A stretch of DNA of 64,000 bases from Candidatus Bathyarchaeia archaeon (GCA_050013255.1 JBEKFP010000001.1:1024001-1088000); one strand, 5' to 3'. Shown: positions 1 to 53,099, numbered from the stretch's first letter. Numbers and translations are program-made. The notes: a model not told the origin generated them from the letters alone.

Positions 1-455
1 GTCTTGTCTAATCGCGTGGCAAAATGAATAAACTGCGCCCCGAAAGCCTGATCAAGCTTGAGTAAGAGCCTGGTTGCGTATTTCACCTGACTCTTAGCGA
101 CTATGAAATCTAGATCATGAAGTTCTCGAAAGAACGGAGCTCCTTGACCATTGGTGCTTCGGCATCGAACCTTGATTGCGCCTCCCCCGAATAGGGCGAG
201 ATTTACGGGTTCATCAGTCAGGGGCTGGCGATAGACTGACGGAAAAAGTTCATGTAGCCGCGGAGCATTTCTCGCGGCCCAGAGAGCCACCACGGCCCTT
301 TGCATTGGCACGTAATTCATGTCTACCCAATCGGGTATGTTAAGATCCTTCTTCATTGCTTGTAGGTCGGCTTTATTGCTCAGGGGCCAATCCACTTCAA
401 GCGCGGTGCCGTCGTCTTCCGTGAAAAGTGAGATTCTCGTAGGTGTGGCGGTCAA
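1..455 (-). CDS. Nucleotidyltransferase-like protein (Pol-beta superfamily), 3'-partial, runs off the window edge
   Basis: Not in the ORF track. Manual translation from TTG at 455 is open to base 1: MTATPTRISLFTEDDG...VNLALFGGGAIKVRCRSTNGQGAPFFRELHDLDFIVAK. It has the hG[GS]xA...DxD signature and resembles 14349..15203 and 56300..57190. Confidence 0.75.
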   Translation of the reverse strand, partial: MTATPTRISLFTEDDGTALEVDWPLSNKADLQAMKKDLNIPDWVDMNYVPMQRAVVALWAARNAPRLHELFPSVYRQPLTDEPVNLALFGGGAIKVRCRSTNGQGAPFFRELHDLDFIVAKSQVKYATRLLLKLDQAFGAQFIHFATRLDK

Positions 456-8099: not shown

Positions 8100-9365
8100 T
8101 TACCGCAAGCTTCTTGCAAGTTTCATTTGCAGGGACTTGGCGTCCCTGCGACTAACAGATAGCGCACACAGTATTGGCATAGGAAAGCAATCATCCTCCA
8201 ATTTTGGAATATGCGAAAGTGATATTGCTCGTTCAGCCTCCCAAAGCAGCTTTGCCGCGGTCTTCACCGCTCCACCGTAGTCTGAGTTTGTATAGCATCT
8301 CACCCTAGACCTTATGGGCGTTGATGACCATGAGAATCGCGCGTTCACATGTGCCCGTACTGAAAATGCGGTCTTATACAAAAAACGTCTTGACAATGGA
8401 TCTTCTTTCGAGAGTTGCTCAAACCGAACATTGAAGAGCAGCTCCTGCTCATCCATCCTGATTTTAGTCAATAGGACCGGATACTTCCCAAGCTTTCTTC
8501 CTTCCAAGTGCCATGCAGCAATGTCAGCAGGCCTCAACGACTTAGGGACCGCCGAAGTTCGCGAGTCCATCTTTTTAGCGAGCTTTGGCGTGGTGTTACG
8601 CAAAATTCCGCATATGTTCGCTGCGATCCGCGCCTTGTAGGTTTGGTCCTTGACTTCTGCCGACAAAGCGTTTGGGCCAGTTATCTCTAGATGACCAGCT
8701 GCCGCGATCTGTGAAATGGCTCTAGCGAAGTCAACCCCCTGCCCGACCTTGCAGAAGAAGGAGTTGAAGCTTGAATTGTCTCGTTTCCAAATCTCGACCC
8801 TCCCTCTTCTCAGCGCGCGTGCAACGATGGGTAGGGCTTCCATCTGGTCAGCCCAGACGCCGGCTGTGTTATTCAGGCCTAGTTGCGTTCTGTTGCGCTT
8901 CGCCTCATTATAGAGGCTAAAGCAGAGGTCATAGTCGGCCCAAGGCGCTTTGTTTCCTGTGCAGTATGCAACACAACCCATCAGGCTGCGCGCAATTCTA
9001 TAGTCTCCTTCCGCACTTAACAGGGTGGTGTCCAACATCACCCAATTGCGAATTGATCCGGAAACCAAATCATTGATGGCGCTCAGTTCTTGCTTTAGCT
9101 TGTCGAATTCGTAAACTCGACACCCTTTGATCGCGATTTCGTAACTCACACGACTAGTGGACGATACTTTGTCCTTGATCGCAACTATCTTCTGAACATC
9201 GTTTTTCGAGAATGCCTGTCGATTTCTTTTAGTCAGAATGTGTTTGCTGTCAGCAATCAAGTTGATTGTGAAGGAATGGTTTTGGTTTGCGTATTGACGG
9301 AGTAAGTTCTTGCCTACTTTTCCGAGACCGAGCAAGGCCGCCTTGGGTTTTTCTTGCCCTGCCAT
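8100..9365 (-). CDS. Highly diverged homoserine dehydrogenase-like oxidoreductase
   Basis: LLGLGKVG Rossmann motif, IADS, LDTT and TGNKAP (cf. TANK). GHLE..SAEVKDQTYK aligns to HSD GYAE.DP..DV.G.D.A.K. GGAVKTA resembles GAG...TA. Confidence 0.6.
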   Translation of the reverse strand: MAGQEKPKAALLGLGKVGKNLLRQYANQNHSFTINLIADSKHILTKRNRQAFSKNDVQKIVAIKDKVSSTSRVSYEIAIKGCRVYEFDKLKQELSAINDLVSGSIRNWVMLDTTLLSAEGDYRIARSLMGCVAYCTGNKAPWADYDLCFSLYNEAKRNRTQLGLNNTAGVWADQMEALPIVARALRRGRVEIWKRDNSSFNSFFCKVGQGVDFARAISQIAAAGHLEITGPNALSAEVKDQTYKARIAANICGILRNTTPKLAKKMDSRTSAVPKSLRPADIAAWHLEGRKLGKYPVLLTKIRMDEQELLFNVRFEQLSKEDPLSRRFLYKTAFSVRAHVNARFSWSSTPIRSRVRCYTNSDYGGAVKTAAKLLWEAERAISLSHIPKLEDDCFPMPILCALSVSRRDAKSLQMKLARSLR

Positions 9366-9464
9366 GACTCAATCACTTTCTCCAGCATGCTTCATTGGGG
9401 TTGATGCCAGTGCTCTAGACTCTGCTTCGGTTCCGAAGGCGACAGCCAACGGCGACTGAGAAGG

Positions 9465-9866
9465 TTAGGCCTTCTTTTGATTCTTGGTCTTGAAAACTTC
9501 TTCCGGGCGTATGTTGTCAACTTGGCCGTAGAAGAAGATCGCATCCACATGGCCCCCTGGCTTGAACTCGAAGACGTGCCACTCCAGCTCCGGAATATGT
9601 AGCGTCATTCCAGTCTCCAGCAGCACGCGCGTTTCAAGCCGGTCGCGTGTAGGGCCGTATCGGACCCAGCTGTCTTTGGCACTGAGGATATGAAACGCCT
9701 CTTCCGCATGTTGATGCGGTTCCATGGGACCGCTTTCCTCTGAGTAGTGACCAAAGCCAACTGTCATACGATCACTAGGCCAGAATGCGCCCTTCCCAAC
9801 GACCTCTTGGATAATTCTACCCGGCAATCGTTCCTGCTTAACATCCTGACGCTTTATGACCTTCAA
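9465..9866 (-). CDS. Cupin domain protein
   Basis: Cupin motifs PHQHAEE and IPELEWH. Start moved to TTG 9866, which follows a GAGGAG SD. Confidence 0.8.
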   Translation of the reverse strand: MKVIKRQDVKQERLPGRIIQEVVGKGAFWPSDRMTVGFGHYSEESGPMEPHQHAEEAFHILSAKDSWVRYGPTRDRLETRVLLETGMTLHIPELEWHVFEFKPGGHVDAIFFYGQVDNIRPEEVFKTKNQKKA

Positions 9867-10062
9867 ATTGCACTCCTCAACGCAATTCGTTAGGGAGGCT
9901 GAAAGCGTCCTTATAGGTTCACGTGGCGCTTTCCGATGTCGTAAAACAAGGGATTTTCTCGATGAAAGGAAATTCAAGATTATCATTTGTGGAAAAATCA
10001 GGCTGCTTACTTAACCAACATAGTTGAAGAATACTCGGTCTGACCTTCGTGAGGTGATTTGG

Positions 10063-10896
10063 GTGGAGTTATGCGCTCACATGCGTTGCTTCCCGATGTA
10101 TTCAATGGAGAAAGCCGTTGAGATTGTTGCCCAGTTGGGTTTCAAGTCCCTAGAAGTCGCAGCAGTGAGGCCCGGCCTATCTTATCCTGACGACTACACG
10201 AAAGATGACGTGCTGAAGCTCAGAGATCATATTCGGTCCAATGGGCTAAGGGTCGCTGCGATACACACTGACGATGGTAGCCCTCATACTTCCAACCTGA
10301 CGAATTACAACGAGAGGGTTAGGCGTTGGAAGATAGAGCACCTGAAGACTAGCGCAGAGCTTGCATCCCTTCTCGACGCCGACGTCGTATCGACAACATG
10401 CGGATACTCGATGCTAACTGAGACGCCTAGGCAGGAGGCGTGGAAGTGGGCGATGGAAGGATTCACAGAAGCCGCGAAGACATCTAAAACTCACGGAGTG
10501 TCTCTCGCTCTCGAACCAGCTCCAGGTACAATCATTAGAGATTCCAAAGACGGAATTCGAATGCTTGACGAGATCAACATGGATAACGTCAAACTCCTCC
10601 TGGATACTGGACATGCGATGATTGCTTCACACAACAGTTGGAGGGAAAATGGCCCCACCCTAGCAGATTCAATTCACGATTCTCGGAAGTACCTGATTCA
10701 CGTCCACGTTGACGACAACAATGGGACTATGGATGAGCATCTAGTCCCGGGTACTGGTGTAGTCGATTTCGAAACGGTGCTAGTCGCTCTTCGCGACATC
10801 AATTACGAGCGATACCTATCGTTCGAAATCTCTGCGCGGGACCCAAGGAAGGGACTGAGGGATAGCAAGCGGTACATCGAAAAGCTCCTGAAGTAG
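10063..10896 (+). CDS. Sugar phosphate isomerase/epimerase (AP-endonuclease-2 TIM barrel, D-tagatose 3-epimerase-like)
   Basis: Metal ligands in LALEP, LDTGH, HVHVDD, DEHLVPGTG, LSFE. GTG start at 10063 follows GAGGTGA. Confidence 0.88.
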   Translation: MELCAHMRCFPMYSMEKAVEIVAQLGFKSLEVAAVRPGLSYPDDYTKDDVLKLRDHIRSNGLRVAAIHTDDGSPHTSNLTNYNERVRRWKIEHLKTSAELASLLDADVVSTTCGYSMLTETPRQEAWKWAMEGFTEAAKTSKTHGVSLALEPAPGTIIRDSKDGIRMLDEINMDNVKLLLDTGHAMIASHNSWRENGPTLADSIHDSRKYLIHVHVDDNNGTMDEHLVPGTGVVDFETVLVALRDINYERYLSFEISARDPRKGLRDSKRYIEKLLK

Positions 10897-10929
10897 ATGG
10901 AACGCCTCAGGGCTTTGGAGCTGTTTGGG

Positions 10930-12180
10930 TTATGTGCTTACTACTTCTTGGACGACTTGCTTGAATTCATCATCTGTTAGAGCGCGTTTGTGTTCGATCC
11001 CTGCCTGTTTCACACGCGTGAGTATTGGGGCAATCTTATCCTCCGGAGCCGTAAGTCCCAACTCTTTGAGCTTGTAGGTGATTGACGGCCTGCCGCTTTT
11101 CTTTCCAACGACGATCTTGTGGCTCGCTCCGCCGACGAATTCGGGTGTGAAGGCGAAAATTTCTAGGGGCGATAGGTTTTGGTCACGTATCCTGTCCCAC
11201 CAACCCGCTACGATTCCAGATTCCACCGTGAATATTCCGTCGCCCACGACCGCCTTTCCAGGCGGCATCTTTACGCCTGAACATTCCTGAACGAGTTTTG
11301 AGAGCGGTGTGAGTTTGTCGTATTTTATGTTATTATCTATCCCGTACAAGCACTTTGTGGCCATCGCCACCTCTTCGAGCGGAGCACCGCCAGAGCCTTC
11401 GCTAATCCCGTTGACGGTCGTGTGAATTACTTCTGCGCCTTGTTGGACGGCCGCTATGGAATTTGCCACAGCGAGGCCGAACGTGTTGTGGCAGTGTATC
11501 TCGATTGGCTTCCGAACCTTCGCCTTGAGCTTCTTCACAAGGTAAGAGATTGCGACCGGTGAAGCAACGCCGAACGTGTCAACCACAGTTAGTGCATCCA
11601 TGTGGCCTTTTGTAGCGACTGCGTTGATGATTTTCCAGCATGTCGAGAATGGTGACCTCGTGGAGTCTAGAGTGAAGAACGTTACGTAGAGGCCGTGTTC
11701 ATGCGCATAGCTTGTGCTCTCAACGGTAAGTTCAAGTGCTTTCTCCACCGTCCAACCATAAGCATTCTTGAGGAGGGTTTCGCTTGTCGGTATTTCCATC
11801 TGAACGCCATCAACGTCACATCTTAACGCGTTGTCAACGTCCGCTTTCATACACCGGGATAGGCAGAAGATCCTGGCATTCAGGCCCATACCCTTAATCG
11901 TCTTGATTGCTTGCGCGTCCTCCTCAGAAACGCCAGGCATGCCTGCTTCTATTCGGTCGACGCCCGCCTCGTCCAAGAGCTTAGCGATTCTGATTTTCTC
12001 ATCCTTTCGAAAGACAAGACCGGCCTGCTGTTCGCCGTCCCTTAGAGTAAGGTCGTGGAATTTGATTTTCTTAGGGAATTTCATTCCCTTTCTTGCTTGG
12101 CTGTCATAATTGTAGTGGCTAACACGATAATTCTTAGTGTTCCACGGTTCCTTCAATGGAAGTACCCAAGCAGGTAGCAT
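10930..12180 (-). CDS. DRE-TIM metallolyase, homocitrate/isopropylmalate/citramalate synthase family (no regulatory domain)
   Basis: DLTLRDGEQ, IEAG, DTFG, HCHNTFGLAVAN, VGKKSG. Confidence 0.88.
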   Translation of the reverse strand: MLPAWVLPLKEPWNTKNYRVSHYNYDSQARKGMKFPKKIKFHDLTLRDGEQQAGLVFRKDEKIRIAKLLDEAGVDRIEAGMPGVSEEDAQAIKTIKGMGLNARIFCLSRCMKADVDNALRCDVDGVQMEIPTSETLLKNAYGWTVEKALELTVESTSYAHEHGLYVTFFTLDSTRSPFSTCWKIINAVATKGHMDALTVVDTFGVASPVAISYLVKKLKAKVRKPIEIHCHNTFGLAVANSIAAVQQGAEVIHTTVNGISEGSGGAPLEEVAMATKCLYGIDNNIKYDKLTPLSKLVQECSGVKMPPGKAVVGDGIFTVESGIVAGWWDRIRDQNLSPLEIFAFTPEFVGGASHKIVVGKKSGRPSITYKLKELGLTAPEDKIAPILTRVKQAGIEHKRALTDDEFKQVVQEVVST

Positions 12181-12284
12181 CCGAGAGCAATATTTATGCT
12201 ACGGCTGAGTTTTCCAAAAGAGAGAAACTCTGATACTTTTCGATAGTAGCATCGCATGCATCCCGATTGAAATATGTTAAGTGC

Positions 12285-13262
12285 CTAACTTTTCGGCGCG
12301 TGCAAATGTTCCTTCGGAAATTCAACGCCCACTGTGTACTGTAACTTGCCGGCGTTAAGGACCATCTGATAGGTGTTCACTCTGACTCCGGGACAGGTCG
12401 ACAGGACGAGGTAGGCGTCACGGTGATTTCTTCCGTAGTCCTCTTTGAGCCAATCCATCATCCAAAGCATTGCTTGCTTAACAGCTTCTTCCAGAGGTCT
12501 GAAGGAATTGAGTTGGATTATGGAGTCTTTCTTTTCCACGCGTACGAAGGGTATGGATTTCTTCTTGATGACCCGGCATGATAGCCTGACTTCTGCAGAA
12601 CATTCGTCGGCTACGCCTGAGAATTCTGTATCGCCCATACACGCATGAACGTCCCCGAGAAAGAGTAATGCACCATCGGTGAATATCGGGAAGTACACTC
12701 TGCTTCCCTTGCAAATGTCCCTAGAGTCTAGGTTGCCACCATAAGGTCCCTGATTCATCGCTGAGGCCAAGTACTCCCATTCAGGCGCAACTCCGATAGT
12801 GCCAATGTGCGGCTTCAGGTCCCACGTGTCCCCAGTGGGAAGGACAGCTTTACCGTCGGAGGTAGTTCCGCTGGGACCTTTAGTGTGCCTGATTATGCTC
12901 GTGAAGGGGCCTCTGCATTCACTGTACTTCACCGAGTCTGAAAGTGGCCCGAAATCAGTTATAATCCAATGGGCGCCCTGATCGCTGGGTATTATGTCAA
13001 TTATGTCGACCGCTAGTATGTCTCCTTTCCGTGCATTTTTGACATAGATTGGCCCGGAGAGGAAATTCGCTTTCATAGGTGACGCTACGAGTAGATCGCC
13101 TAGAACTTCTGGAACTGGCAGGTCTTTCGCGGTCTTAATTCGGTTTCCGAGAGCATCAACAGTCTCAACAGCAAACTCCTCGCCTTCCTCGACTCGAAGT
13201 AATGGTTCTGCTTGGCTGGAAAACGCGTATTGTTTTGCTTTCGACCGGTCTATTCGTTGCAT
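12285..13262 (-). CDS. Acetamidase/formamidase family protein
   Basis: ETVDA, N..SGPIYV..A..GD.L.V, PHIGTIGVAP, GGNLD, GALLFLGDVHACMGDTE. Start moved to ATG 13262. Confidence 0.9.
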   Translation of the reverse strand: MQRIDRSKAKQYAFSSQAEPLLRVEEGEEFAVETVDALGNRIKTAKDLPVPEVLGDLLVASPMKANFLSGPIYVKNARKGDILAVDIIDIIPSDQGAHWIITDFGPLSDSVKYSECRGPFTSIIRHTKGPSGTTSDGKAVLPTGDTWDLKPHIGTIGVAPEWEYLASAMNQGPYGGNLDSRDICKGSRVYFPIFTDGALLFLGDVHACMGDTEFSGVADECSAEVRLSCRVIKKKSIPFVRVEKKDSIIQLNSFRPLEEAVKQAMLWMMDWLKEDYGRNHRDAYLVLSTCPGVRVNTYQMVLNAGKLQYTVGVEFPKEHLHAPKS

Positions 13263-13283
13263 AAACCGCGTCGCAATACCCAC

Positions 13284-13300
13284 CATTAAATATAGCTTTT
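13284..13300. promoter_or_regulatory. Putative bidirectional TATA box
   Basis: TTAAATATAGCTTTT is the only AT box in the 59-bp gap between divergent starts at 13262 (-) and 13322 (+), about 24-28 nt from each. Confidence 0.5.
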
Positions 13301-13321
13301 GTATGATGTGCACGATTCATT

Positions 13322-14320
13322 TTGAGTGAAGTCGAGCTATGCGGAATTCACGTTAGTGCAGGCGAGAAGAAGGAAACATTTCTTGATGTGACTGCAACGA
13401 AGCCTCCGGCTTCTGTGCAAATCCCGATGACTATCATCAATGGTGCTAAGGAAGGGCCAACCCTTGCAGTTATTGCTGGCGTTCATGGCACGGAATACGC
13501 AGGCGTTGAGGCAGCGATACGAGCCGCGAAGGAGATTAATCCGCGAACGCTAAACGGGACATTGGTGGTTGTTCCGGCCGCGAATTGGCCTGCTCTATAT
13601 ACAAGAACTGTTGGCGTCTGTCCTTTGGACAACGTCGAATTATTCCGTGCGTTTCCAGGCAACCCAGACCGCTCAATAACCTACGTGATCGCAAGCCGAA
13701 TCTTCAATGACATAGTTCTCAAGAGCGATTTTGTCATCGACCTTCATGGAGGAGAAATGATCGAATCCAAGGCAAACCGTTGCTGCTGGTACGTCGAGAC
13801 GGGAACGGAAGATACTCGAAAGGCCTCGAAGCAGTTGGCAATCGCATTTGGCCTACCAAACATCTTGGACACTACGATGGTAATGGTTGGCAACGATAAA
13901 TGGCCCGGTCCAAGCGGAACCCTCCTATACGAAGCATCCTCGCGCGATGTACCGACTATCATTGGAGAAGCCGGAGGCGAGGGCAAAATTGAAGAAGACT
14001 CCGTCGCTGACCTCAGAAATGGAATTCAAAATGCACTCATACATATAGGCATGGTGAAAGGAAAACGTAAACCCTCACGAAAACCAACAGAACTAACCGA
14101 CCTAACAGGGCTAGTAGCAGATTCAGACGGCATATTCTTCTCCAAAGTCAAAACAGCTGAGAAAGTTAGGAAGGACCAGTTGATTGGAGAGGTCAAAGAC
14201 ATTCGTGGCCAAAGAGTACAGGAACTAATTGCACCATTCAACGGGCTAGTCCATGCGCAGTATTGCGCGCCAATCACCAGAAAAGGCGAACCCACAATCT
14301 GGTTCGTACGAAAGCGTTAG
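13322..14320 (+). CDS. Succinylglutamate desuccinylase/aspartoacylase (M14) family deacylase
   Basis: AGVHGTEY (HxxE), FRAFPG, IDLHGG, GEAGG, and a C-terminal barrel-sandwich segment. Confidence 0.9.
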   Translation: MSEVELCGIHVSAGEKKETFLDVTATKPPASVQIPMTIINGAKEGPTLAVIAGVHGTEYAGVEAAIRAAKEINPRTLNGTLVVVPAANWPALYTRTVGVCPLDNVELFRAFPGNPDRSITYVIASRIFNDIVLKSDFVIDLHGGEMIESKANRCCWYVETGTEDTRKASKQLAIAFGLPNILDTTMVMVGNDKWPGPSGTLLYEASSRDVPTIIGEAGGEGKIEEDSVADLRNGIQNALIHIGMVKGKRKPSRKPTELTDLTGLVADSDGIFFSKVKTAEKVRKDQLIGEVKDIRGQRVQELIAPFNGLVHAQYCAPITRKGEPTIWFVRKR

Positions 14321-14348
14321 TTACGCGCAGCCTCCCTCTCGTGGAACC

Positions 14349-15203
14349 TTAACGGGATACTTCGCCGACTTCTCTATACCAAGGCTTAGAAGTACCCGTC
14401 TTAGCACGCTTCTCCCAATCCTTCGTCTTGGGGCATGCATCAATAATCTTCCGCAACCCAGCCACCCTATCTGTGACAATAGCACACTGCCCGTCGGTAA
14501 TACCTGCCTTCTGACTCGCCAGCTCACGAGCCAGCGCATCTACCGACCCTAGGTTGTTCGTCGCGTCGTACCAAAATCCCCAATCGTTAGATAGTATCCT
14601 CGAAACATATCCGGCATCTATCATGTCATTGCCCGGTTCCTCTAGAACGTCATGCCCTAAGAAGAGGACGATTAAATCTAATACGTCTTTGCGATTGATC
14701 TGATGTATTTGCAATTTTTCGAGAACTATGTCCGCAAGGGATATTGTTGGGTAGTCAAGTTCTAGCCTTCCCGAGCCGGGCTTTTTCCCGAATTCAACGT
14801 CGTGGCTGAATTCCAGTTTGTCAATGAATAGGTCGATTGGAAACTTGCCTTCAGGATGATGGTAAATCAGCCTTCGTCCTCCGAACATCATATTAGCCAT
14901 GTTGTCCGGTTTGAACCCCGCCTCCTCGAGGATCTTGGTTGCATTACCTCTTTGCTTACCATATAACGCGAGGTCTAGGTCTGTGAACATGGGCTTTCCA
15001 TCACCGAGCCTGCCCAATGATTTGAACGCTGACAGGGCAACCTGGTTGTCGAGGGAATGAACATAAACGGCGAAAGCGCCTAGGAATCTCAGGAAGATTT
15101 GCTTTGCCTGAGCTTTTTCGACAATGACGCTCGCTTCCTTGAGAAACTCGGTCTCATTCATCTGAACGAAGTGTGCTGGTTGGGTCAAAGGAAGATTGGG
15201 CAC
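14349..15203 (-). CDS. Uncharacterised nucleotidyltransferase-like protein (Pol-beta superfamily)
   Basis: LRFLGAFAV...FTDLDL (DxD) and IDLFID (third Asp). Shares KLQI..IN.KD..D, LSNDWG and WY.EVGEV with 56300..57190. Confidence 0.75.
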   Translation of the reverse strand: MPNLPLTQPAHFVQMNETEFLKEASVIVEKAQAKQIFLRFLGAFAVYVHSLDNQVALSAFKSLGRLGDGKPMFTDLDLALYGKQRGNATKILEEAGFKPDNMANMMFGGRRLIYHHPEGKFPIDLFIDKLEFSHDVEFGKKPGSGRLELDYPTISLADIVLEKLQIHQINRKDVLDLIVLFLGHDVLEEPGNDMIDAGYVSRILSNDWGFWYDATNNLGSVDALARELASQKAGITDGQCAIVTDRVAGLRKIIDACPKTKDWEKRAKTGTSKPWYREVGEVSR

Positions 15204-15497
15204 ATCCTGCCTTCGCTTGCATCACGTGAATTTCGACACAATTAATAGAGGTTATGACTAGCAAGCGACGCTGACAAAAGCCTCACTGCAATTCCAGAAC
15301 AACTCCATCCAGCTACTCCCGGAATCATTCAAGAGATGTCGAAACCAATTGATAGCATTGGGCTATTTTTCAATGCACATGGTGGAACATTGACGTATCA
15401 GCTGGAGGTGGGCGCTTGCCTAAATGATATAAACACGAATCAAAACTTTGCAATACCAAGGAATGGCCTCCATATCTTGCCCCTGATAAGGAAATGT

Positions 15498-15513
15498 TCG
15501 AAAACTATATATT
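15498..15513 (+). promoter_or_regulatory. Archaeal BRE/TATA promoter of APC permease
   Basis: CGAAAAC-TATATAT lies about 37 nt upstream of TTG 15549, with a GAGTGA SD in between. Confidence 0.5.
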
Positions 15514-15548
15514 TCGCCAATTCATGCCGAAAGTGCGAGTGAAAGTAT

Positions 15549-17138
15549 TTGGCTGCCAAGCAGGAATTTTTTGCTAGGAAAGCTTCAGGTCTCGTGAGGC
15601 AAATCTCAGCCAAAGACGCATTGATGTTTAACATTCTATTCATGGGGCCTAATTGGACTTTCATCTACATTGTTTTTGACGCTGCGCTCTACCCTGGTGC
15701 AAACGTGCCTTTAGCCCAACTGATTGTTGCCCCCCTCATCTTCATAGTCGCGTTAACTTACACTATGCTGGCGGTGACGATGCCTCGGGCGGGGGCGGAC
15801 TTCGTTTGGATCAGCAGATCAATTCATCCCTTCGTCGGTTTCATTGAGAGCTGGATCTTGGTAGTTTTCATCGCATCGTATTTTGGCGTACAGGGAAGCG
15901 CATTCATTGGGCCCGCAATCGGGAGCCTCTATGGTGGCTGGGCGTTGATCACGAACAATCCGGGACTGACGAGCATGATTGCGACCCTCACCACTCCGCT
16001 GAATCTGGTAATCTTCACCGTGATCTGTATTGTAATAACTCAGATACAGGTCGCTGCTGGAACAAAGAACTACTTTAGACTTCAGTGGGTCTGGTTCAGC
16101 TTCGTCTGCTTGGGCATTCTACTCTACGCGGGCTCAATGCTTCTGACTGGACACGATGGATTCGTCGCAAGATTCAATCAACTCTCAGGTATGAACTACG
16201 ACAACATAATAACGGCTGCGCAGTCGGCAGGCTACAACACCGGTTTCACTACATTCGGAATGCTGTTCGGAACGGTGTACGCATTCTTGATTTACTGGGG
16301 CTTCTCGTGGTCCTCATTTTTCGCTGGAGAAATGAAAGAGGCATACCGGTCCCAGATCATCGCGATAGTAGGCGGTGTAATCATCTTCGCGTTCGCGACC
16401 TGGGGACAATACCAGATCGCCTACATGGTTGTAGGCCAACCATTCATGCATGCCGCATCATACCTTGCCGTGTCCGGTAACCCTGCATGGACCGCGCCGA
16501 CAGGCCCCTGGCTCTGCTACCTTGTAGCTTTCGCAACCAACAATCCCTATGTCGCAGCAATAGTCGCATCCTCAATTCTGATTGGCGTCTTAGGAACGCT
16601 GGCGTCGTACTCATTCATGATGACAAGAGTGTTGTTCGCGTGGTCTTTCGACCGTCTCCTCCCAACTGCGTTCTCGAACCTTGACCGGCAATTTCACTCA
16701 CCAAGAAATGCCCTCGGCCTTGCATTCGTCTTAGCTATGGTCTTCGTCTACCTCGGTAACTATACGACCTTGCTTAACTACCTAGTCTACGGAACTCTGG
16801 GATTATGGGCAACTTCCACGATTGTCGGAATTGCCGCCGCAGTATTTCCGTATAGGCGCAAGGATATCTTCGAGAAAGCGCCCGGGATTGCGAAGAAGAT
16901 GATCGGCAAAGTTCCCTTGATGGCACTGCTAGGAGCGATAACCGCCGTCGTCAGCGCCTTCGGCGCAATCGCATCCGCTCTGCCGCAATTCATTGGTGCT
17001 CCGGTCAACCCATTCTACGTAGCGGCCGCAGGCGCAACAGTGTTCATTGGAATCATCTACTTCGTCTTAGTCTACACATACAACCAGCGGAGAGGCCTCG
17101 ACATGACCATCGCCTTCCGCGAAATACCGCCCCTATAA
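15549..17138 (+). CDS. APC-family amino acid permease
   Basis: Many hydrophobic segments; FARKASGLVR N-terminus, MPRAGAD..WISR, AGEMK, RVLFAWSFDRLLP, C-terminal FREIPP. Confidence 0.92.
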   Translation: MAAKQEFFARKASGLVRQISAKDALMFNILFMGPNWTFIYIVFDAALYPGANVPLAQLIVAPLIFIVALTYTMLAVTMPRAGADFVWISRSIHPFVGFIESWILVVFIASYFGVQGSAFIGPAIGSLYGGWALITNNPGLTSMIATLTTPLNLVIFTVICIVITQIQVAAGTKNYFRLQWVWFSFVCLGILLYAGSMLLTGHDGFVARFNQLSGMNYDNIITAAQSAGYNTGFTTFGMLFGTVYAFLIYWGFSWSSFFAGEMKEAYRSQIIAIVGGVIIFAFATWGQYQIAYMVVGQPFMHAASYLAVSGNPAWTAPTGPWLCYLVAFATNNPYVAAIVASSILIGVLGTLASYSFMMTRVLFAWSFDRLLPTAFSNLDRQFHSPRNALGLAFVLAMVFVYLGNYTTLLNYLVYGTLGLWATSTIVGIAAAVFPYRRKDIFEKAPGIAKKMIGKVPLMALLGAITAVVSAFGAIASALPQFIGAPVNPFYVAAAGATVFIGIIYFVLVYTYNQRRGLDMTIAFREIPPL

Positions 17139-17259
17139 TTTCACAGGACAAACCTAACCGAACAGGCTCTCCTCACAACTGAGCGGAGAGTCAGCTCTCA
17201 CTTTCTAGTCGACTAACTGAACTTTGTGCTCCAGTCGTCGTCTGTACCTTCGGGGCACT

Positions 17260-18234
17260 TCACCCAGAAGTTAGCTGCCAACTGAGCACTTTCTTGTCTG
17301 CGAGGTTCACGAGTACTCCTCGCAGTATTCCCTCCGAGTATTCGCTGCCGGGGTTGACGACTTGTGTTCTCCCAATTTTACATACCCCTCTGGACTCGTG
17401 TACGTGACCGCACAAGTCGATTAGCGGTTGATACTTGTCAATTGCTTTTCGAACCGCTGCGCTTCCAGCTCCAAACATGATAGGTTGTCCACCACGATCA
17501 ACCACAGGTTTTGGAGGGTACACCGAGTCGTCTAACTTCTGAACAGTGTCTAGGCCGCAGTCTATTGGTGGACTGTGGAAGTTGAAAACACAATTGGCCG
17601 TGTTTGTCACAGAGGCCATTACTTTCTCAATGCGTTCACTGAGTTCCCCTTCATTGCATTCACGCGGGCATTTCCAAGGAGTTGGATTGCTCCATCCCAT
17701 GCTTGCCATTTCATGAAGCGGATCGATCTTGACCACCTTGTTATCTGGATTCTTCACGTGCTTAGTCTCCTTGATCTCGTCGATAACCTCCTGCATGTCA
17801 TCGTTTCCACCAGTAATGAAGCAAGGGGTGTTCGATTCGCTTAGAACTCGTTCGGCCAAATCAATCCAACGAACAAGCGTTTCCTTCATAACCTTGACAA
17901 AGAGAGCGTCAACCTTCTCCTTTGAAGCTTGGAGCTCTTCCATCTCAGACATGCTGCAATGGTAGTAGTAGTAACCGCTGTCGCCTATTCGCCGTTCCAG
18001 ATCCTTGACAGCTTCAGGAGTCTTGAGGATTTCTTCATTCCCAACGAACCTTGCTCTGAATGTCCCGTCACCCAGATCTACAATCGGTATCACGAGTTTC
18101 CCGGTGACATCTCCCCCCAGCACAAGAACATCTGCCTTGTAGAATTTGGTAGCGGCTAAGAATTTCGTGAAGCAGCGCTCAGATCCGTGGATGTCCGTCG
18201 CAAAGAAGACCCTTGTGAATTTCTTTCCTTGCAT
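17260..18234 (-). CDS. Calcineurin-like (Icc-related) metallophosphoesterase
   Basis: Motifs DIHG, GGDVTGK, GGNDD, HSPP, GHVHES, NPGSEY. Confidence 0.9.
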   Translation of the reverse strand: MQGKKFTRVFFATDIHGSERCFTKFLAATKFYKADVLVLGGDVTGKLVIPIVDLGDGTFRARFVGNEEILKTPEAVKDLERRIGDSGYYYYHCSMSEMEELQASKEKVDALFVKVMKETLVRWIDLAERVLSESNTPCFITGGNDDMQEVIDEIKETKHVKNPDNKVVKIDPLHEMASMGWSNPTPWKCPRECNEGELSERIEKVMASVTNTANCVFNFHSPPIDCGLDTVQKLDDSVYPPKPVVDRGGQPIMFGAGSAAVRKAIDKYQPLIDLCGHVHESRGVCKIGRTQVVNPGSEYSEGILRGVLVNLADKKVLSWQLTSG

Positions 18235-18411
18235 TCAAACTTCTCTCGTTGTGTTTCCTTCCAAGGCACCGTCTTTGCCAGTGAATTTAATACCTATGCA
18301 CACCTTCCTTAGATGAAAAATAGGGCTTCAGCCTGACTTTATATATTATAAGATAACTTCGTAGCATTTTCTTATATTGGCAAGCGTTCTAGTCCCCCGC
18401 GTTGATTAAGT

Positions 18412-19599
18412 ATGGATCTTCCACCTATCAAGACTTTAATGACTCCTGGTCCCGCAGAAGTTTATCCTGAGATTCTCGCCCTGCTAAACAGGCCTCAACT
18501 CATACATTATGGCAAAGCTTGGGGTGATTTTCACAGGGAAACCTGCCGTTCACTTAGCCCTCTTTTCGGAACAACTCAGGAACCAATATTGCACTATGGC
18601 CCCGGCAGCATGTGTATGGAGGTCGGTATGGCCAACACTCTCAATGAAGGAGACCACGTGATCAACGTAATCACCGGCTACTTCGGCCATAGGTGGGAGG
18701 ATATGTTGAAACAAAGAAAACTCATTCCCCACAGTATAACCGCTGTCGTAGGACAAACAATTCCACCTGAGGCGGTTGAGAAGGCGTTCAAAGAACACAA
18801 AGAGGCGAAAGCAATTGTGGCATGCCAAGTGGATACCTCCACGGGCGTACTTAGCCCAATTCAACAATATGCGGAAATTGCTAGGAAGTACGGGGCGTTC
18901 TTCATCTTGGACGCGATATCTGCTTTCGGCGGAGTACCGCTCGAAATGGACAAGTGGGGATTGGACTATTGCGTTGGATATCCGAGCAAATGCCTCAGCT
19001 CAATCTCAGGAGTTACACCCGTTGCGATATCAAAACGGGTATGGGAAGTCGTGGAGACAGAAGAGCATAAGGCCGGTTGGTACTTTGATCTCAAAACCTA
19101 CAAGTGGTACTTTCATGATTGGGGGTCATGGGGACACCCCTACCCAACCACGATACCAATCCAAGCCGTCATAGCCATTCGGGAAGCGGTTAACATTATC
19201 CAGCGCGAAAGGCTTCAGAATTGTCACTTGAGGCACCAAAGGTCTGGGAAGGCGGTACGCGCAGCCGTCCGCGCTATGGGAATGAAGTGCCTTGCGAATG
19301 AAGAGGTTGCATCACCGACCGTCACACCAATCATAGTCGGAGACGACTTGGAGAAGAGAGTGCAGGCAATTATGGCTGAGAAACACAACATTCACGTCGG
19401 AGTGAGCCTGGTTTCGCCAGTAACAATCCGGTTCGGGCACATGGGACGATCAGCCTACCCAGATTTGATACTTGGCACAATCTCAGCACTTGAATCCGTC
19501 CTAGCGGAACTCGGCAGACCCATAAAGTGGGGTGCAGGGCTCGCCGCCGCCCAAGAACACCTGGCTTCTACAACAAGACCCATCCTAGTCGAACATTAG
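18412..19599 (+). CDS. Class V aminotransferase (alanine-glyoxylate/serine-pyruvate type)
   Basis: LMTPGP, DTSTGV, DAISAFGG, PSKCLS (PLP Lys), YPTT, IRFGHMG. Confidence 0.9.
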   Translation: MDLPPIKTLMTPGPAEVYPEILALLNRPQLIHYGKAWGDFHRETCRSLSPLFGTTQEPILHYGPGSMCMEVGMANTLNEGDHVINVITGYFGHRWEDMLKQRKLIPHSITAVVGQTIPPEAVEKAFKEHKEAKAIVACQVDTSTGVLSPIQQYAEIARKYGAFFILDAISAFGGVPLEMDKWGLDYCVGYPSKCLSSISGVTPVAISKRVWEVVETEEHKAGWYFDLKTYKWYFHDWGSWGHPYPTTIPIQAVIAIREAVNIIQRERLQNCHLRHQRSGKAVRAAVRAMGMKCLANEEVASPTVTPIIVGDDLEKRVQAIMAEKHNIHVGVSLVSPVTIRFGHMGRSAYPDLILGTISALESVLAELGRPIKWGAGLAAAQEHLASTTRPILVEH

Positions 19600-19701
19600 C
19601 GAATGGCAACCAACAAGCACCTTCGTACGGCCCCGTTCAGGCAGATCTTAGGCCACATCATGGGCCGGAACGACTCTTAGGACGTAATGTTGAGCTCACG
19701 G

Positions 19702-20949
19702 TCAAGAATGAACTTTCGCTTTGATTTGGGCGACTGAAGCTAAGGCTTCTATTGTCGGCTGAATAGGTGATGGCAGGACATATCTTTCCTTCAGAGAGGC
19801 GGTTTCTTTCAAACCGGTTCCCGTGATTACACATACCACATTATCCTGTGGCCCAACCGTGCCATCATCGACTAGATGCCGAAGAGCTGCTACGACGGAT
19901 GCGGAGGCTGGCTCAGCGAAGATACCCTCGCGGCTGGCTAGGAGGGCTTGAGCCTCGAGCATCTCCTTGTCTGTGACGGCGGTTGCGATGCCCCCTGACT
20001 TCTTAATCGCCCTCAAGGCTGCTAGGCCTGTAGGGGGGTGTTCCATGCAGATGCTTGAGGCGATCGTCTGTGGCTTGCTTATAGTGCGTATATGTTCATG
20101 ACCATCTCGCAGCGGTTCCGTCAGAGACTCGCACACACTCGCCTGGACGCCGACGAGTTTTGGCGGTTTCCCTGCCAAGTCCAATTTTTCGAGTTCTTCG
20201 AACCCCTTCCAGTTCGCCGCGATGTTGTCTCCGCCCCCAACTGGATAAAAAACCCAGTCGGGACGGTCTTTGGTTAGCAGCGATGAAATTTCATAGGCGC
20301 AAGTTTTCGCGCCCTCTGACTGGTATGGATTAGTTGGGCCGGACGTAGGTATCGGGTACCAGCCCCATTTATCATAAGCCTCCTTCAGAAGCTCCAGTGC
20401 CGCGTCAACAGGCGCTAGGATTGGGATTACTCTGGCCCCACAAGCCATCCCCTGGTACATTTTCGTTGGACTAGCCGTCGCCGGGACTATTATCCAGCAA
20501 TTCATACCCGCCTTCGCCGAATACACAGCAAGTGATGCGCCAGCGTTTCCAGAAGATCCGATCGACACATCTAAAACCCCACTTTCACGCGCGACGTTAA
20601 TGCCCACGCAAATCGAACGATCTTTGAAAGTCCCTGACGGATTTCTTGTTTCGTCCTTCAGATACAGCCGCTTGAGTCCGATGGATTCTGCCAGGCGATT
20701 GCCCGTCAGTAAGGGAGTGTTGCCTTCTCCTAAAGACACTGTGGGCATCGTGCCTTTGACTGGCAAAAGTAACGAATACTTCTCGATCATGTTGCTTCCT
20801 TTGCCGAACTCCCCTTTCGCTAGTGCATCTGCAACCATGTCCATATCATAGACTACTTCAAGCAATTCATGGTCGACGTCACACTTGAACAGCTTTCCGT
20901 ATTCGTATTCTTTCGAGCAGGAAATACACTTCAGTGCCCTAACAAACAT
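19702..20949 (-). CDS. thrC: Threonine synthase-like PLP enzyme (paralogue 1)
   Basis: N-terminal CxxC, SLGEGNTPL, NPSGTFKDR, SSGNAG, PVGGG, EGIFAEPAS, TGTGLK. Start moved to ATG 20949. Confidence 0.85.
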   Translation of the reverse strand: MFVRALKCISCSKEYEYGKLFKCDVDHELLEVVYDMDMVADALAKGEFGKGSNMIEKYSLLLPVKGTMPTVSLGEGNTPLLTGNRLAESIGLKRLYLKDETRNPSGTFKDRSICVGINVARESGVLDVSIGSSGNAGASLAVYSAKAGMNCWIIVPATASPTKMYQGMACGARVIPILAPVDAALELLKEAYDKWGWYPIPTSGPTNPYQSEGAKTCAYEISSLLTKDRPDWVFYPVGGGDNIAANWKGFEELEKLDLAGKPPKLVGVQASVCESLTEPLRDGHEHIRTISKPQTIASSICMEHPPTGLAALRAIKKSGGIATAVTDKEMLEAQALLASREGIFAEPASASVVAALRHLVDDGTVGPQDNVVCVITGTGLKETASLKERYVLPSPIQPTIEALASVAQIKAKVHS

Positions 20950-21001
20950 CCAAGATTCCTCTCCAAATGACCGTGATCCGATTCCTCGTTCTTCACCTTC
21001 C

Positions 21002-21085
21002 AAGTTCCACTAGTAACTTGAATCGGACATTTCTTGAACGCGCCCACCTGCGCCTAGGTTTTGATATACCCTTCTAGTGGAACTT
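21002..21085. repeat. 12-bp perfect inverted repeat with 60-bp spacer
   Basis: AAGTTCCACTAG (21002-21013) and CTAGTGGAACTT (21074-21085). Confidence 0.75.
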
Positions 21086-21237
21086 TGTATTGATGACTGG
21101 GTGCACGCCGCTGGAGACTTTGGCAATCTTCGACTCGCCCACTTCAATGATTCTATCCCCTGCATCCCATGGCTCTACATTGGCAGATAGCTGACCCATC
21201 TTCATGCTCAACTCATTTTCTCCTCCATATGCAGCAT

Positions 21238-21699
21238 TCAGGTTCTTGATCTCATTCGGGATCTGGTGTAGTCACGTTCGAGTTGTCTCGCGTACTTATC
21301 CCAAACAGCATTAGCATGTTTCGTCCATTGGGCCTTGTTCGCGGCTATCTCCATCTTATTTCTGACTCTGAACGTGACGCTGAGCTGTGTCTTGCGCTTT
21401 CCGACCTTTGACAACTTATAGTCTGCAAACTCGTCATCCTCATCACCAATCCAGTCCAAGTGCCACGCGTTCGGTGGCTTCAACGTCACGACCTTGGCGG
21501 CGTTCAGGGACTTGCCGTTCAGCGTCCTCACTGAAATGATGTATCTGTTCCTCGTCTTCTCCAATATGGAGATCTTCTTTTTCTCGCCTGTAATTTTGTA
21601 GTCATCCTCCCTGAAATCGGTACACCAATCGTAAACGAACTTGACTGGCGCATTAAATATCTTCGACGCTGTTAGTGAGAAGGCTGGTAGCTTTGGCAT
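21238..21699 (-). CDS. Hypothetical protein, SRPBCC/START-like
   Basis: The segment IFNAPVKFVYDWCTDF and a C-terminal helix WDKYARQLE are typical of SRPBCC folds. Confidence 0.6.
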   Translation of the reverse strand: MPKLPAFSLTASKIFNAPVKFVYDWCTDFREDDYKITGEKKKISILEKTRNRYIISVRTLNGKSLNAAKVVTLKPPNAWHLDWIGDEDDEFADYKLSKVGKRKTQLSVTFRVRNKMEIAANKAQWTKHANAVWDKYARQLERDYTRSRMRSRT

Positions 21700-21959
21700 A
21701 ATGAGCCTCGCGAGGGCCGCAGTCTATGTTGCTCAAAGGTCTTTGTACAAGTTTCGATTTCCGGAATTTATGATTTTGTGTGTTAGGTTTCGGTCGAGGT
21801 TTTCTACATATGCCTGGTGGCTTAAATTCTGTGCATGCCAAAGATTGAAGGAATTGATCAACTCGATTTTCGCTTGAATTCTACCGAAGTGACTCATCCA
21901 ATACCCTGATAGCCACTCTCTCACACCCCGTTCACAAACCCCCTTAGGAGGAATGAGAG

Positions 21960-22259
21960 ATGGTTTCTCAACTTAGACGATATACGATCAATAAAGGACA
22001 ACTCGATGACTTTCTTGATGCATGGACTAAGAATGTCGTTCCGCTTCGACGAAAACACGGTTTCAAAGTCGATGGCGCATGGACGATAAAGGATAGGAAT
22101 GAATTCGTCTGGATACTGACATACGACGGCCCGGAACAGTGGCAAACCAAGGTCGATGAGTACTTCTCTTCACCTGAACGCAAAGCGATGAATCCGGACC
22201 CGGGACATTTCGTAGCCAAAATTGAAGAATGGTTCATTTCACCCGTGAATTTCGCATAG
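21960..22259 (+). CDS. NIPSNAP family protein
   Basis: QLRRYTI..G.LD.F..W...VVPLR.KHGF...GAW; preceded by an AGGAGG SD. Confidence 0.85.
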   Translation: MVSQLRRYTINKGQLDDFLDAWTKNVVPLRRKHGFKVDGAWTIKDRNEFVWILTYDGPEQWQTKVDEYFSSPERKAMNPDPGHFVAKIEEWFISPVNFA

Positions 22260-22315
22260 AAACACGTTGCAATAGTCATAACCAGCCCCACGAATTCGTT
22301 CACGAAGGATTAGAG

Positions 22316-23512
22316 TTGAACGAAAGCACATATGCTACTGAATTGCAGTGTGTTGGTTGCGGGTCGAAATACAGGCTTGAAGAAACAGTCCTCACGTGTT
22401 CGAAATGTGGCGAAGTCCTCGACGTAAACTACGATCTAAGCCGTTTAAAGAAGAGAAAATCGTATCGTGAATCACTGAAGGAACGGAGTCACTCGTTATG
22501 GCGTTATCGTGAATTCCTTCCGATACTCTCCGATGACCAGATCGTATCCTTGGGTGAAGGGCTGACACCGCTTGCGAAAGTGCCCCGCTACGCACGCGCT
22601 GTTGAGCTCCATGGTCTGGTAATGAAACTGGATTACCTTAACCCTACCGGGTCTTTCAAGGATAGGGGGACCACGACCAGCGTTTCGAAGTTAAAGGAAT
22701 TGGGAGTCCACACTGCAATGGACGACTCATCAGGTAACGCGGGTTCCTCATTGGCAGCATACTGTGCTGCTGCAGGGATAGAATGCACACTGTACGTTCC
22801 AGCAACTGCGCCCCGCGAGAAACTCACGCAAGCTCAAATGTACGGCGCAAGAATCAACAAGATAACCGGCTCAAGGACAGACGTCGCAAAGGCGGCGGAA
22901 GCCGCTTGGAAGACAACGCGCATTTTTTACGCTTCGCACAATTTGAGCCCGTTCTTTTTCGAGGGAATGAAGACCGTAGCGTATGAAATATGTGAGGACT
23001 TGGTATGGCAGGCCCCAGACCACGTGATCTTTCCAGTCGGGGGCGGAACACTAATGGCTGGAGCTTGGAAGGGCTTTCGAGAATTGAAGGAACTCGGTTG
23101 GATAAGTCGCACGCCGAAACTTCACTGCACTCAATCAGATGCATGTATGCCGATAGTGAATGCTTTCCAAAGCGGCAGCGCGAAAGTTACGCCAGTCGAG
23201 GAAAAAGAAACAATTGCTGGAGGAGTACGAATTTCGAACCCTGGAAGGGGCCAGGAAGTTCTCGGGGCCGTGCGTGAAAGTGGAGGACAAGCTATTGCAG
23301 TAGCGGATGACGCGATTCTAAAACATCAGCAAATGATCGCTAGAAGCGAGGGCATCTTTCCTGAACCAACATCATGTGTACCTTTGGCAGGGCTTGAGAA
23401 ACTCCGCGAAGCAGGCGTTCTGAAAGCCGATGACGTAATCGTTGTACCACTTACAGGGTTTGGCTTGAAAGATGTCACAACTGCAATGGCATCGCTCAGC
23501 AGGAACAAATGA
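22316..23512 (+). CDS. thrC: Threonine synthase-like PLP enzyme (paralogue 2)
   Basis: CxxC..CxxC, SLGEGLTPL, NPTGSFKDRG, DSSGNAG, PVGGG, TGFGLK. Likely TTG start at 22316. Confidence 0.85.
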   Translation: MNESTYATELQCVGCGSKYRLEETVLTCSKCGEVLDVNYDLSRLKKRKSYRESLKERSHSLWRYREFLPILSDDQIVSLGEGLTPLAKVPRYARAVELHGLVMKLDYLNPTGSFKDRGTTTSVSKLKELGVHTAMDDSSGNAGSSLAAYCAAAGIECTLYVPATAPREKLTQAQMYGARINKITGSRTDVAKAAEAAWKTTRIFYASHNLSPFFFEGMKTVAYEICEDLVWQAPDHVIFPVGGGTLMAGAWKGFRELKELGWISRTPKLHCTQSDACMPIVNAFQSGSAKVTPVEEKETIAGGVRISNPGRGQEVLGAVRESGGQAIAVADDAILKHQQMIARSEGIFPEPTSCVPLAGLEKLREAGVLKADDVIVVPLTGFGLKDVTTAMASLSRNK

Positions 23513-23624
23513 GACCTACTGCCTGGACAAAAGACGGGAAAATTAAGAGATAACCAAATTTCCGGATTTGAGAATCACACGGAGAGGTTTAGCATCGACA
23601 TATCCTCAATGATCTCGATACTTT

Positions 23625-24080
23625 GTGGGTACTGAGGAACAAGCCAAGGAATACTTCACTTCAGGTTTCAACTGCGCAGAATCCGTACTGCTAGCCCTAA
23701 GCAAGAAGCTGCTGTCGGGTGACGGCGCGGAGGCGTGCATTCCAATGATGGCTACGGGGTTCGGTGGTGGAATGGCCCTAAATGGAGACACGTGCGGTGC
23801 TTTGAGCGGCGGCATAATAGCAATCGGTTTGGTGCTCGGACGCAACCAACCACTCCAAAGCAGGGACCCGTGTTACAGTACAGTTGATCGCTTGTATCAG
23901 GATTTCAAGAAGGAATTTGGCACCTGCAAATGCTGCGAGCTGACGGGCGTTGACCTGAAGACCGCGGAGGGGCTCAATGCCCTCCACGGCAGGATCAGGG
24001 ACGAACGTTGCAAACCAATTGTTGAGTGGACAGCGAAAAGAACTAGTCAACTCATCCAGGAATTGGCGGGGAACATCTAA
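23625..24080 (+). CDS. C-GCAxxG-C-C family putative redox protein
   Basis: FNCAES, GFGGG, TCGALSGG, C..L.G and a C-terminal Cys. Confidence 0.88.
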   Translation: MGTEEQAKEYFTSGFNCAESVLLALSKKLLSGDGAEACIPMMATGFGGGMALNGDTCGALSGGIIAIGLVLGRNQPLQSRDPCYSTVDRLYQDFKKEFGTCKCCELTGVDLKTAEGLNALHGRIRDERCKPIVEWTAKRTSQLIQELAGNI

Positions 24081-24146
24081 GCAATATAGAGTATAGTCGT
24101 ACCCATTAAGAACTGGAAGAAGACGCTGAAAAATCGTATACTGAAA

Positions 24147-47115: not shown

Positions 47116-47271
47116 GGCAAGGAACAGCAACTAACGTTTCGCTAGCGTTGTGAAGACTGACAAAGAGGCATCTGGCAGAGTTGATGCTCGAGCACATTGC
47201 AGTGCATACTCTACTTTTAGATCACACTTTATTGTTATATGCGCCCCTTCGAGCTTCGCCCTGTGATTGAA

Positions 47272-48078: not shown

Positions 48079-48351
48079 ACTTTCCGTGCCTCCTCGTTAT
48101 GCGACAGAAATCGCACTGGATGTTTTCAACTCAGTGGGATACTTTTTGCCCGTGTCCTTGTTCTGAATTCTGTCCCTTGCAGTCCCTGAAGGAGCGACCA
48201 TGTGAAACTCAACGACCGAGAATCGGTCCGTGATGTTGAAAACATCATAGTGATTTCTGTAGCTGATTCCCATTTTAGGCTGCCAATGTGATCGTTCATT
48301 TCGAGCAAAACTTCATCACTGACATTATGCAGACATGATTAGGAGTAGCTC

Positions 48352-49251: not shown

Positions 49252-49310
49252 GAGTGGATTTATCGGCGAGAACCAAATAGAAGTTTAAAATTGCACAATT
49301 CGTTCCCTCC

Positions 49311-50417: not shown

Positions 50418-50424
50418 TAAAGGC

Positions 50425-51612: not shown

Positions 51613-51633
51613 GCTTAAACCGATACAGTCGAT

Positions 51634-53089: not shown

Positions 53090-53099
53090 ACTGCGGAAA

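Follow-up and report, generated by a model that had tools for sequence, protein, structure and literature searches.

A stretch of 64,000 nucleotides from a metagenome-assembled genome of a peat Bathyarchaeia archaeon (2.46-Mb assembly) carries two copies of a group of three genes, coding for a permease of the amino acid-polyamine-organocation (APC) transporter family, a nucleotidyltransferase with a Pol-beta fold (NT) and a metallophosphoesterase (MPE). The whole stretch is called the window here, and coordinates are window positions unless prefixed G000. The observations reported below support the conclusion that the three genes are a conserved, functionally linked unit; this trio is new and widespread, and its co-inheritance suggests an undescribed control of nutrient uptake. 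The mechanism is a proposal: it is possible, and for now no better than tentative, that NT and MPE work against each other in a reversible modification of the permease, where the acceptor, the transferred group and the effect on transport are the parts that we infer.

In copy 1 the NT gene (P0001, 284 aa, 14349-15203, minus strand) is divergent from the permease gene (P0005, 529 aa, 15549-17138, plus strand; Pfam AA_permease_2, E 2.7e-17), with 345 bp between the two open reading frames (ORFs; 15204-15548) as the presumed shared promoter region, and the permease gene is convergent with that of the MPE (P0003, 324 aa, 17260-18234, minus strand), identified as an ORF with the invariant motifs of its family. 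Copy 2 has the order permease (P0006, 538 aa, 54617-56233), NT (P0002, 56300-57190, up to 296 aa, with an uncertain start and NT homology from about 56438) and MPE (P0004, 316 aa, 57190-58140), all on the plus strand, and the stop codon of NT overlaps the start codon of MPE in the sequence TAATG. The preliminary description of this DNA had located these genes, assigned them to their families and quoted their motifs; all six genes were found, the families were borne out, and the motifs are present, namely G..A, DxD and a third D in the NTs, DxH, GD, GNDD, H and GHxH in the MPEs and R[KR]ASGLVR and FREIPP at the permease termini. Between the two copies the NTs are 33% identical (E 4e-47), the MPEs 43% (E 1e-91) and the permeases 29% (E 2e-51); the genes are old, real paralogues.

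A search of the whole assembly yielded eight full trios, each within about 5 kb, and the order and orientation of the genes differ at almost every one of these loci. This bears out, more strongly than had been claimed, the earlier reading of the two window copies, that the linkage had survived both rearrangement and divergence. In total the genome holds 10 NTs, nine full MPEs plus one remnant, and 10 permeases with the motifs of the subfamily. A third trio, encoded wholly on the minus strand, straddles the start of the window (G000:C1:1020416-1024455). Its MPE and permease are found immediately upstream of the window, and its NT is a "long" form of 359 aa whose C-terminal part lies at window 3-455 (minus strand) and matches the profile of the NT paralogues with E 1.6e-18. 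Although extended at its N-terminus by about 55 aa and interrupted by an internal insertion, this NT has lost none of the catalytic residues. The long form was also found after an APC permease and an MPE in another genome (L139) and near trios at two further loci (L037, L038). Among the eight paralogous trios the permeases share only about 24% identity, the NTs about 37% and the MPEs about 44%, both enzymes with many invariant residues besides the catalytic ones. The flanking genes all differ from trio to trio, and include HpcH aldolases with a cyclase and a CBS protein, NmrA with a polysaccharide-deacetylase-like enzyme, an aldehyde dehydrogenase, an adenine deaminase with an ABC system, an M20 peptidase, an amidase with a proline racemase and a class-III aminotransferase, and a formamidase with an AstE/AspA-like deacylase and pyridoxal phosphate (PLP) enzymes. 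Co-divergence of the eight paralogous trios, assessed by a Mantel test, was weak for NT and permease (r = 0.31, p = 0.045 without module M8) and not significant for the other pairs; in modules M1 and M5 the NTs are mutually closest and so are the permeases, but the nearest paralogue of the M5 MPE is in M4.

Besides the full trios, a ninth locus has decayed, and here an 80-aa piece of a permease immediately precedes an intact orphan MPE (G000:C1:558878-560092), and an MPE C-terminal remnant with a stop codon (G000:C1:947118-947294) lies inside the trio at 943.8-948.1 kb. An Amt ammonium transporter is followed, about 1 kb downstream, by an orphan NT paralogue (G000:C3:269223-272356, locus L029), and a small ORF between the two shows a weak likeness to low-molecular-weight phosphatases. 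This adjacency was considered as an analogy to AmtB-GlnD and given no weight: the closest orthologues of the L029 NT elsewhere adjoin MPE and APC genes, no Amt gene occurs in their retrieved flanks of roughly 1.5 kb each, and the Amt-NT adjacency is probably secondary.

Co-occurrence in other genomes, which the preliminary description had set as a test, was examined in an even sample of 301 Thermoproteota genomes, counting for MPE only strong, full-length matches. NT was present in 54 genomes, MPE in 55 and the permease subfamily in 57; all three families were found together in 52, at least one in 59 and a partial set in 7, and kinship among the sampled genomes would inflate any formal test of these counts. 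All the genomes with MPE have the permease too. The permease of the two "permease only" genomes is of an outgroup type without the motifs. In three genomes MPE occurs without NT; the long NT is present in one of these, and another is truncated where a contig ends. The distribution is patchy over more than 20 families, yet the pattern agrees between the three genes. A tally of coordinates in the same sample placed an MPE within 7 kb of about 45 of the 65 NT genes, and the permease was adjacent as well in 12 of the 15 loci fetched. Sulfolobaceae-like genomes have a single NT with 2-5 MPEs and at least four permeases, while other Bathyarchaeia (G344, G378, G381, G393) have 6-13 NT copies, so that large expansions of the trio are common among Bathyarchaeia.

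A wider survey, in which species-representative genomes were scanned with the MPE alignment and many of the contigs were truncated, yielded 79 MPE loci in archaea and bacteria, with NT at 57, the permease at 64 and all three at 47. MPE loci with one or both of the partners come from both domains: the archaeal records are labelled Nitrososphaerales and, among Asgard archaea, Heimdall- and Baldrarchaeota, and the bacterial ones Anaerolineae (Chloroflexota), Actinomycetota, Thermomicrobium sp. CFH 73360, Acidobacteriota, Thermodesulfobacteriota, Spirochaetota, Bacillota and a gammaproteobacterium; the full trio was also found in Chloroflexota, Actinomycetota and other bacteria. Chance linkage is excluded because of the eight full trios in one genome together with this recurrence in many others. 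Clustering of all the neighbouring ORFs at 117 loci revealed no fourth conserved partner: the three trio families occur at 92, 86 and 72 loci, against 16 for the fourth-ranking family, an ABC ATPase. PALP enzymes recur at 13 loci, class-III aminotransferase-family proteins at 11 and choline/ethanolamine-kinase-like proteins at 8; together with formamidases and dimethylglycine-dehydrogenase-like enzymes, which also recur, they all belong to nitrogen-compound catabolism. Our literature search found no description of the trio and no paper on any of its members.

The NTs match no Pfam family above threshold. The best score for NTP_transf_5 (PF14907; gathering threshold 31.2 bits) was 19.7 bits (P0155) and, among the genome paralogues of the window NTs, 18.5 bits, with sub-threshold matches in four of the nine paralogues; the NT family is related to NTP_transf_5 and separate from it. 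In an alignment of 40 archaeal and bacterial homologues (P0001 numbering) the conserved residues are G42, D75-x-D77, D124, K163-x-Q165 and K172-D173-x-x-D176, of which G42, D75, D77, K163, Q165 and D176 are invariant and D124, K172 and D173 are kept in at least 90%; a C-terminal block, K259...W263..R266...G270....W275-Y276, is also kept, and 77 of 86 NTs fit a strict motif pattern. G42, D75, D77 and D124 answer to the motifs by which the Pol-beta superfamily is recognised, hG[GS], [DE]x[DE] and a third carboxylate on the next strand. The AlphaFold2 model (pLDDT 88) bears out the fold that the preliminary description had expected of the DxD protein, with structural matches to ANT(2'')-Ia (Z 11.9), MenT1 (11.4), a fungal NT-like protein (11.3), JHP933 (10.9), LnuA (10.7), TglT (9.4), TM1012 (9.0), MenT4 (8.3) and the palm domains of DNA polymerase beta (about 7). 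Because of these confident fold matches and the residues conserved in 40 homologues, NT is almost certainly, as predicted from sequence and model, an active nucleotidyltransferase of the ANT/Lnu/MenT clade, and within it forms a family of its own, about 980 clusters (50% identity) matching it at E < 1e-30. Homologues of NT carry the labels Bathyarchaeia or Thermoprotei, every one "hypothetical", and a sequence search of the PDB with NT returned nothing. One homologue of 396 aa (P0172) carries an N-terminal MarR-like winged-helix domain, a rare fusion of NT to a DNA-binding domain.

The MPE is intact, every metal-binding motif being kept. Pfam gives weak Metallophos matches only for the window proteins; D14-x-H16, G41-D42, G143-N-D-D146, H220 and G276-H-x-H279 are invariant among nine paralogues, and GNDD occurs in 100 and GHxHE in all of 111 homologues. 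GNDD, which is the single deviation from the calcineurin-like superfamily motifs, is the regular third motif of this family. It is no argument against MPE activity, because YfcE, MJ0936 and LpxH likewise depart from GNH[DE]. The model (pLDDT 91) has the four-layer alpha/beta sandwich of calcineurin-like proteins, and among the matches listed its closest structures are aq_1956 (2yvt, Z 24.1), TT1561 (1uf3, 22.5) and MPPED2 (19.6). The next structural neighbours are the phosphodiesterases MPPED2, Mre11/SbcD, Rv0805 and GpdQ, 5'-nucleotidases, PptH (Z 14.4) and LpxH. A sequence search of the PDB found only aq_1956 and LpxH, weakly. The signature of PPP-type Ser/Thr phosphatases (GDxHG, GDxVDRG, GNHE) is not matched, motif II of the MPE being GDxTGK and motif III GNDD, and none of the 50 structural matches listed is a PPP phosphatase. 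A 692-aa homologue (P0281) carries homing-endonuclease/LAGLIDADG domains (PF05204, PF14528), which suggests that this phosphoesterase contains an intein.

The permease has an ordinary APC core. Both window proteins match AA_permease_2 (63.2 and 70.2 bits, cut-off 27), and the closest solved relatives are GkApcT (5oqt), CAT1 and the LATs. What sets the subfamily apart are its termini, both cytoplasmic in the APC topology. An N-terminal segment, [VL]-[FY]-x-R-[KR]-A-[ST]-G-L-[VI]-R, precedes the start of the alignment with other APC proteins, and the protein ends in the tail G-I-D-x-x-L-x-[FY]-K-E-I-P-P-[E]; the copy 1 permease reads R10-K-A-S13-G-L-V-R17 and F-R-E-I-P-P-L, and that of copy 2 has both motifs. 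R10, Ser/Thr13, G14 and L15 are each kept in 40 of 40 sequences and R17 in 39. The nearest APC outgroup comes from five Desulfurococcaceae-like loci, near which there is neither an NT nor an MPE; in these permeases Y-L-L or T-L-E replaces [ST]-G-L and the tail is degenerate or absent, T-L-E being the variant of the two loci that are also without the tail. The terminal motifs, which the preliminary description had singled out as possible targets, are thus conserved cytoplasmic signatures specific to the subfamily.

Fusions tie the proteins together further. NT-MPE fusions form four clusters (572-581 aa) with NT at the N-terminus, MPE at the C-terminus and both active sites kept, and in one case an APC permease is found at a distance of about 1 kb; bifunctional writer/eraser enzymes are built in this way. 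We also found one 860-aa MPE::permease fusion, joined some 15 residues ahead of the N-terminal motif; this singleton comes from a 2.7-kb contig and was given little weight.

On this basis we propose that the permease may be switched directly by reversible nucleotidylation of the conserved Ser/Thr in its cytoplasmic N-terminus, with NT writing and MPE erasing, a reading that we favour while holding it to be somewhat short of an even chance. NT would transfer a nucleotidyl or other phospho-linked group from a nucleoside triphosphate to the permease, the acceptor being in our reading the invariant Ser/Thr of R-[KR]-A-[ST]-G-L-[VI]-R; MPE, as a phosphodiesterase-type enzyme, would take the group off again, and uptake of each nitrogen compound would thereby be turned on and off post-translationally. 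The argument starts from the constancy of the target. NT and MPE should act on the same target in every copy, because extensive surfaces of the two enzymes are invariant in spite of a permease identity of only about 24%, because the catabolic contexts all differ, and because in some genomes one NT serves several MPE-permease pairs. The only component both constant and system-specific is the permease's own cytoplasmic signature, with its invariant hydroxyl residue. The N-terminus is favoured as the target for this reason, and because of the NT-MPE fusions, the phosphodiesterase relatives of the MPE and the precedent of PptH, which removes a phosphodiester-linked group from a protein serine (Ser-O-phosphodiester).

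Several points weigh against this proposal. The nearest solved relatives of NT act on small molecules (ANT(2'')-Ia, LnuA) or on tRNA (MenT1, MenT4, TglT), none on proteins, and we know of no nucleotidylated transporter. The contrast between the motif and the outgroup comes from a single clade of five related genomes, and the Ser/Thr-Gly-Leu conservation could be structural, not that of a modification site. A regulator with its own enzyme pair for every permease is unusual, in a few lineages the three genes are non-adjacent, and the MPE::permease fusion could be an assembly or sequencing error. A complex prediction for permease and NT, with 40-row alignments for each, gave a score of 0.18 (mark 0.32), which speaks neither for nor against binding. 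Of the three findings that the preliminary description had named as refuting it, none was made. Of the preliminary interpretation, then, the linked unit, the nucleotidyltransferase fold, the intact MPE and the permease signatures stood, and reversible nucleotidylation of the permease keeps the rank of a proposal; the probability left over by the readings named here belongs to explanations beyond them.

The small-molecule activity of the best structural matches of NT, the O-nucleotidyltransferases ANT(2'')-Ia and LnuA, fits a chemistry at the level of the substrate, in which NT would O-nucleotidylate an imported hydroxyl-bearing amino compound and MPE would cleave the phosphodiester, so that the compound is trapped, or a phosphate ester is left for a PLP-dependent eliminating enzyme. 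The recurrent PALP, class-III aminotransferase and choline/ethanolamine-kinase-like families handle O-phospho-amino compounds, and sequential enzymes, too, are often fused. We nonetheless consider this explanation unlikely. A single chemistry for all the transported substrates is hard to expect because the eight copies sit in different gene neighbourhoods (adenine deaminase, amidase, proline racemase, aldolases, M20 peptidase, formamidase), and the surroundings of the active sites are invariant among the paralogues while permease identity falls to the level given above. A kinase would be a cheaper route to the same job, and kinase genes do stand beside the trio in some loci; the genomes in which a single NT serves several MPE-permease pairs also fit poorly.

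Those invariant surroundings would be explained by a common product, as in a local nucleotide signalling circuit in which NT makes a linear or cyclic messenger, MPE degrades it and the messenger gates the adjacent permease, by analogy with paralogous GGDEF/EAL pairs and with the c-di-AMP enzymes that control transporters. The NT-MPE fusions resemble the synthase/hydrolase fusions GGDEF-EAL and RelA/SpoT, the structural neighbours of the MPE include the cyclic-nucleotide phosphodiesterases Rv0805 and MPPED2, and 8-13 paralogues per genome are typical of second-messenger enzymes. The fold of NT, however, groups with ANT, Lnu and MenT; against known messenger synthases there was only a weak Foldseek match to CdnE, a CD-NTase, and Rel/SpoT reached Z 5.4-6.0. 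Defence and CBASS models gave no match for NT, the 117-locus neighbour survey showed no recognisable receptor domain on the permease or nearby, and eight insulated circuits using one diffusible molecule would cross-talk, so we rate signalling as distinctly improbable.

That NT is a MenT/AbiEii-like toxin modifying tRNA 3' ends, with MPE as antidote and an incidental permease link, is very improbable indeed: NT does have its fold (Z 8-11) and the K...(K/R)DxxD motifs in common with MenT1, MenT4 and TglT, but no AbiEi/MenA-type antitoxin was seen nearby in the neighbourhoods of the trios and the 117-locus survey, there is no PADLOC or Pfam AbiEii match, and strict co-inheritance with one permease subfamily in catabolic clusters does not suit a mobile toxin-antitoxin module. 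A reading of NT as part of a defence system was ruled out by the lack of a PADLOC match.

Among known systems, the trio recalls the GlnD/GlnE-PII-AmtB circuit, where a Pol-beta-fold nucleotidyltransferase is likewise paired, and sometimes fused, with a hydrolytic remover in a writer-and-eraser logic, with a genetic tie to a nitrogen-compound transporter. In the trio, however, the remover is a calcineurin-like MPE instead of an HD domain or a second nucleotidyltransferase domain, NT belongs to another nucleotidyltransferase clade, there is one pair per permease with 8-13 copies per genome, and the 117-locus survey showed neither PII nor glutamine synthetase in the unit, the proposed target being the transporter itself; the resemblance is one of logic only. 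ANT(2'')-Ia and LnuA share with NT the two-lobed architecture and the catalytic set of G, DxD and third Asp, but at 14-18% identity, without the conserved C-terminal helical region K-x3-W-x2-R-x3-G-x4-W-Y of NT, and the setting of the trio is not antibiotic resistance. The MenT, AbiEii (DUF1814) and TglT toxins have the fold (Z 8.3-11.4), the motif III Lys and K...KDxxD in common with it, whereas the trio is without an antitoxin partner or a match to their family models and is linked to a permease and an MPE in catabolic regions.

For the MPE, the nearest proteins aq_1956 and TT1561, "Icc-related" phosphoesterases of the COG2129 type, have the same superfamily motifs and are uncharacterised structural-genomics proteins; our literature search on COG2129, TT1561, aq_1956 and PF14582 found nothing on function. 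At 225-260 aa they are shorter than the trio MPE (about 320 aa), which has in addition an insertion of about 90 residues between motifs II and III, the GNDD motif III and the extra invariant blocks GDxTGK, SNPTPW and NPGSEY. PptH (6unc), the phosphopantetheinyl hydrolase of M. tuberculosis, is a precedent for the eraser chemistry, but is distant, acts on holo-carrier protein and has no link to a permease or nucleotidyltransferase. From CBASS/CD-NTase systems the trio differs in that NT has no PADLOC match and the MPE just a weak partial match to the candidate family PDC-S10. By these comparisons of motifs, family models and gene neighbours, the trio does not belong to the AbiEii/MenT, CBASS or PPP phosphatase families.

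The members of all three trio families are uncharacterised. Inheritance as a unit extends across Thermoproteota, complete genomes of a cultivable, thermophile-like kind among them, and the trio has multiplied in the Bathyarchaeia of peat and sediment, which are thought to feed on detrital nitrogen compounds. If the permease is indeed what NT and MPE modify, no earlier case of a transporter switched by nucleotidylation is known, and the uptake of nitrogen compounds in soils and sediments would gain a new level of control, one that many archaea and bacteria share and that reaches 13 copies in a genome; if instead NT and MPE act on substrates or make a signal, a new chemistry would be attached to APC transport. 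Either way, three "hypothetical" or generic annotations would gain a function.

The DNA of the stretch was found in many peat and wetland metagenomes, and the listed datasets holding it are peat and wetland DNA runs only, with no RNA among them. Rfam and tRNA scans of the window were empty, and a scan for promoters and terminators of bacterial type, with bacterial models on an archaeal host, gave counts no higher than in shuffled sequence. The neighbourhoods of both copies (8100-25600 and 47000-63400) are dense clusters of amino-acid and amide catabolism, with genes for HMGL-like, formamidase, AstE/AspA-like, class-V aminotransferase, two PALP and PhzF-like proteins, an alanine-racemase-fold D-Ser dehydratase-like protein, an amidase, a proline racemase, a class-III aminotransferase and a C45 acyltransferase-like protein. 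Close to copy 2, an 89-aa ORF (58187-58456, plus strand) matches just the first 45 positions of the proline racemase model and adjoins an intact proline racemase-family gene on the opposite strand (58661-59653, minus strand); it is probably the remnant of a duplicated proline racemase copy. Further on, a 206-aa ORF (61715-62335, plus strand) covers just 1-115 of the 461 positions in the aldehyde dehydrogenase model; it overlaps the gene that follows (62230-63354, minus strand) and is probably a truncated pseudogene.

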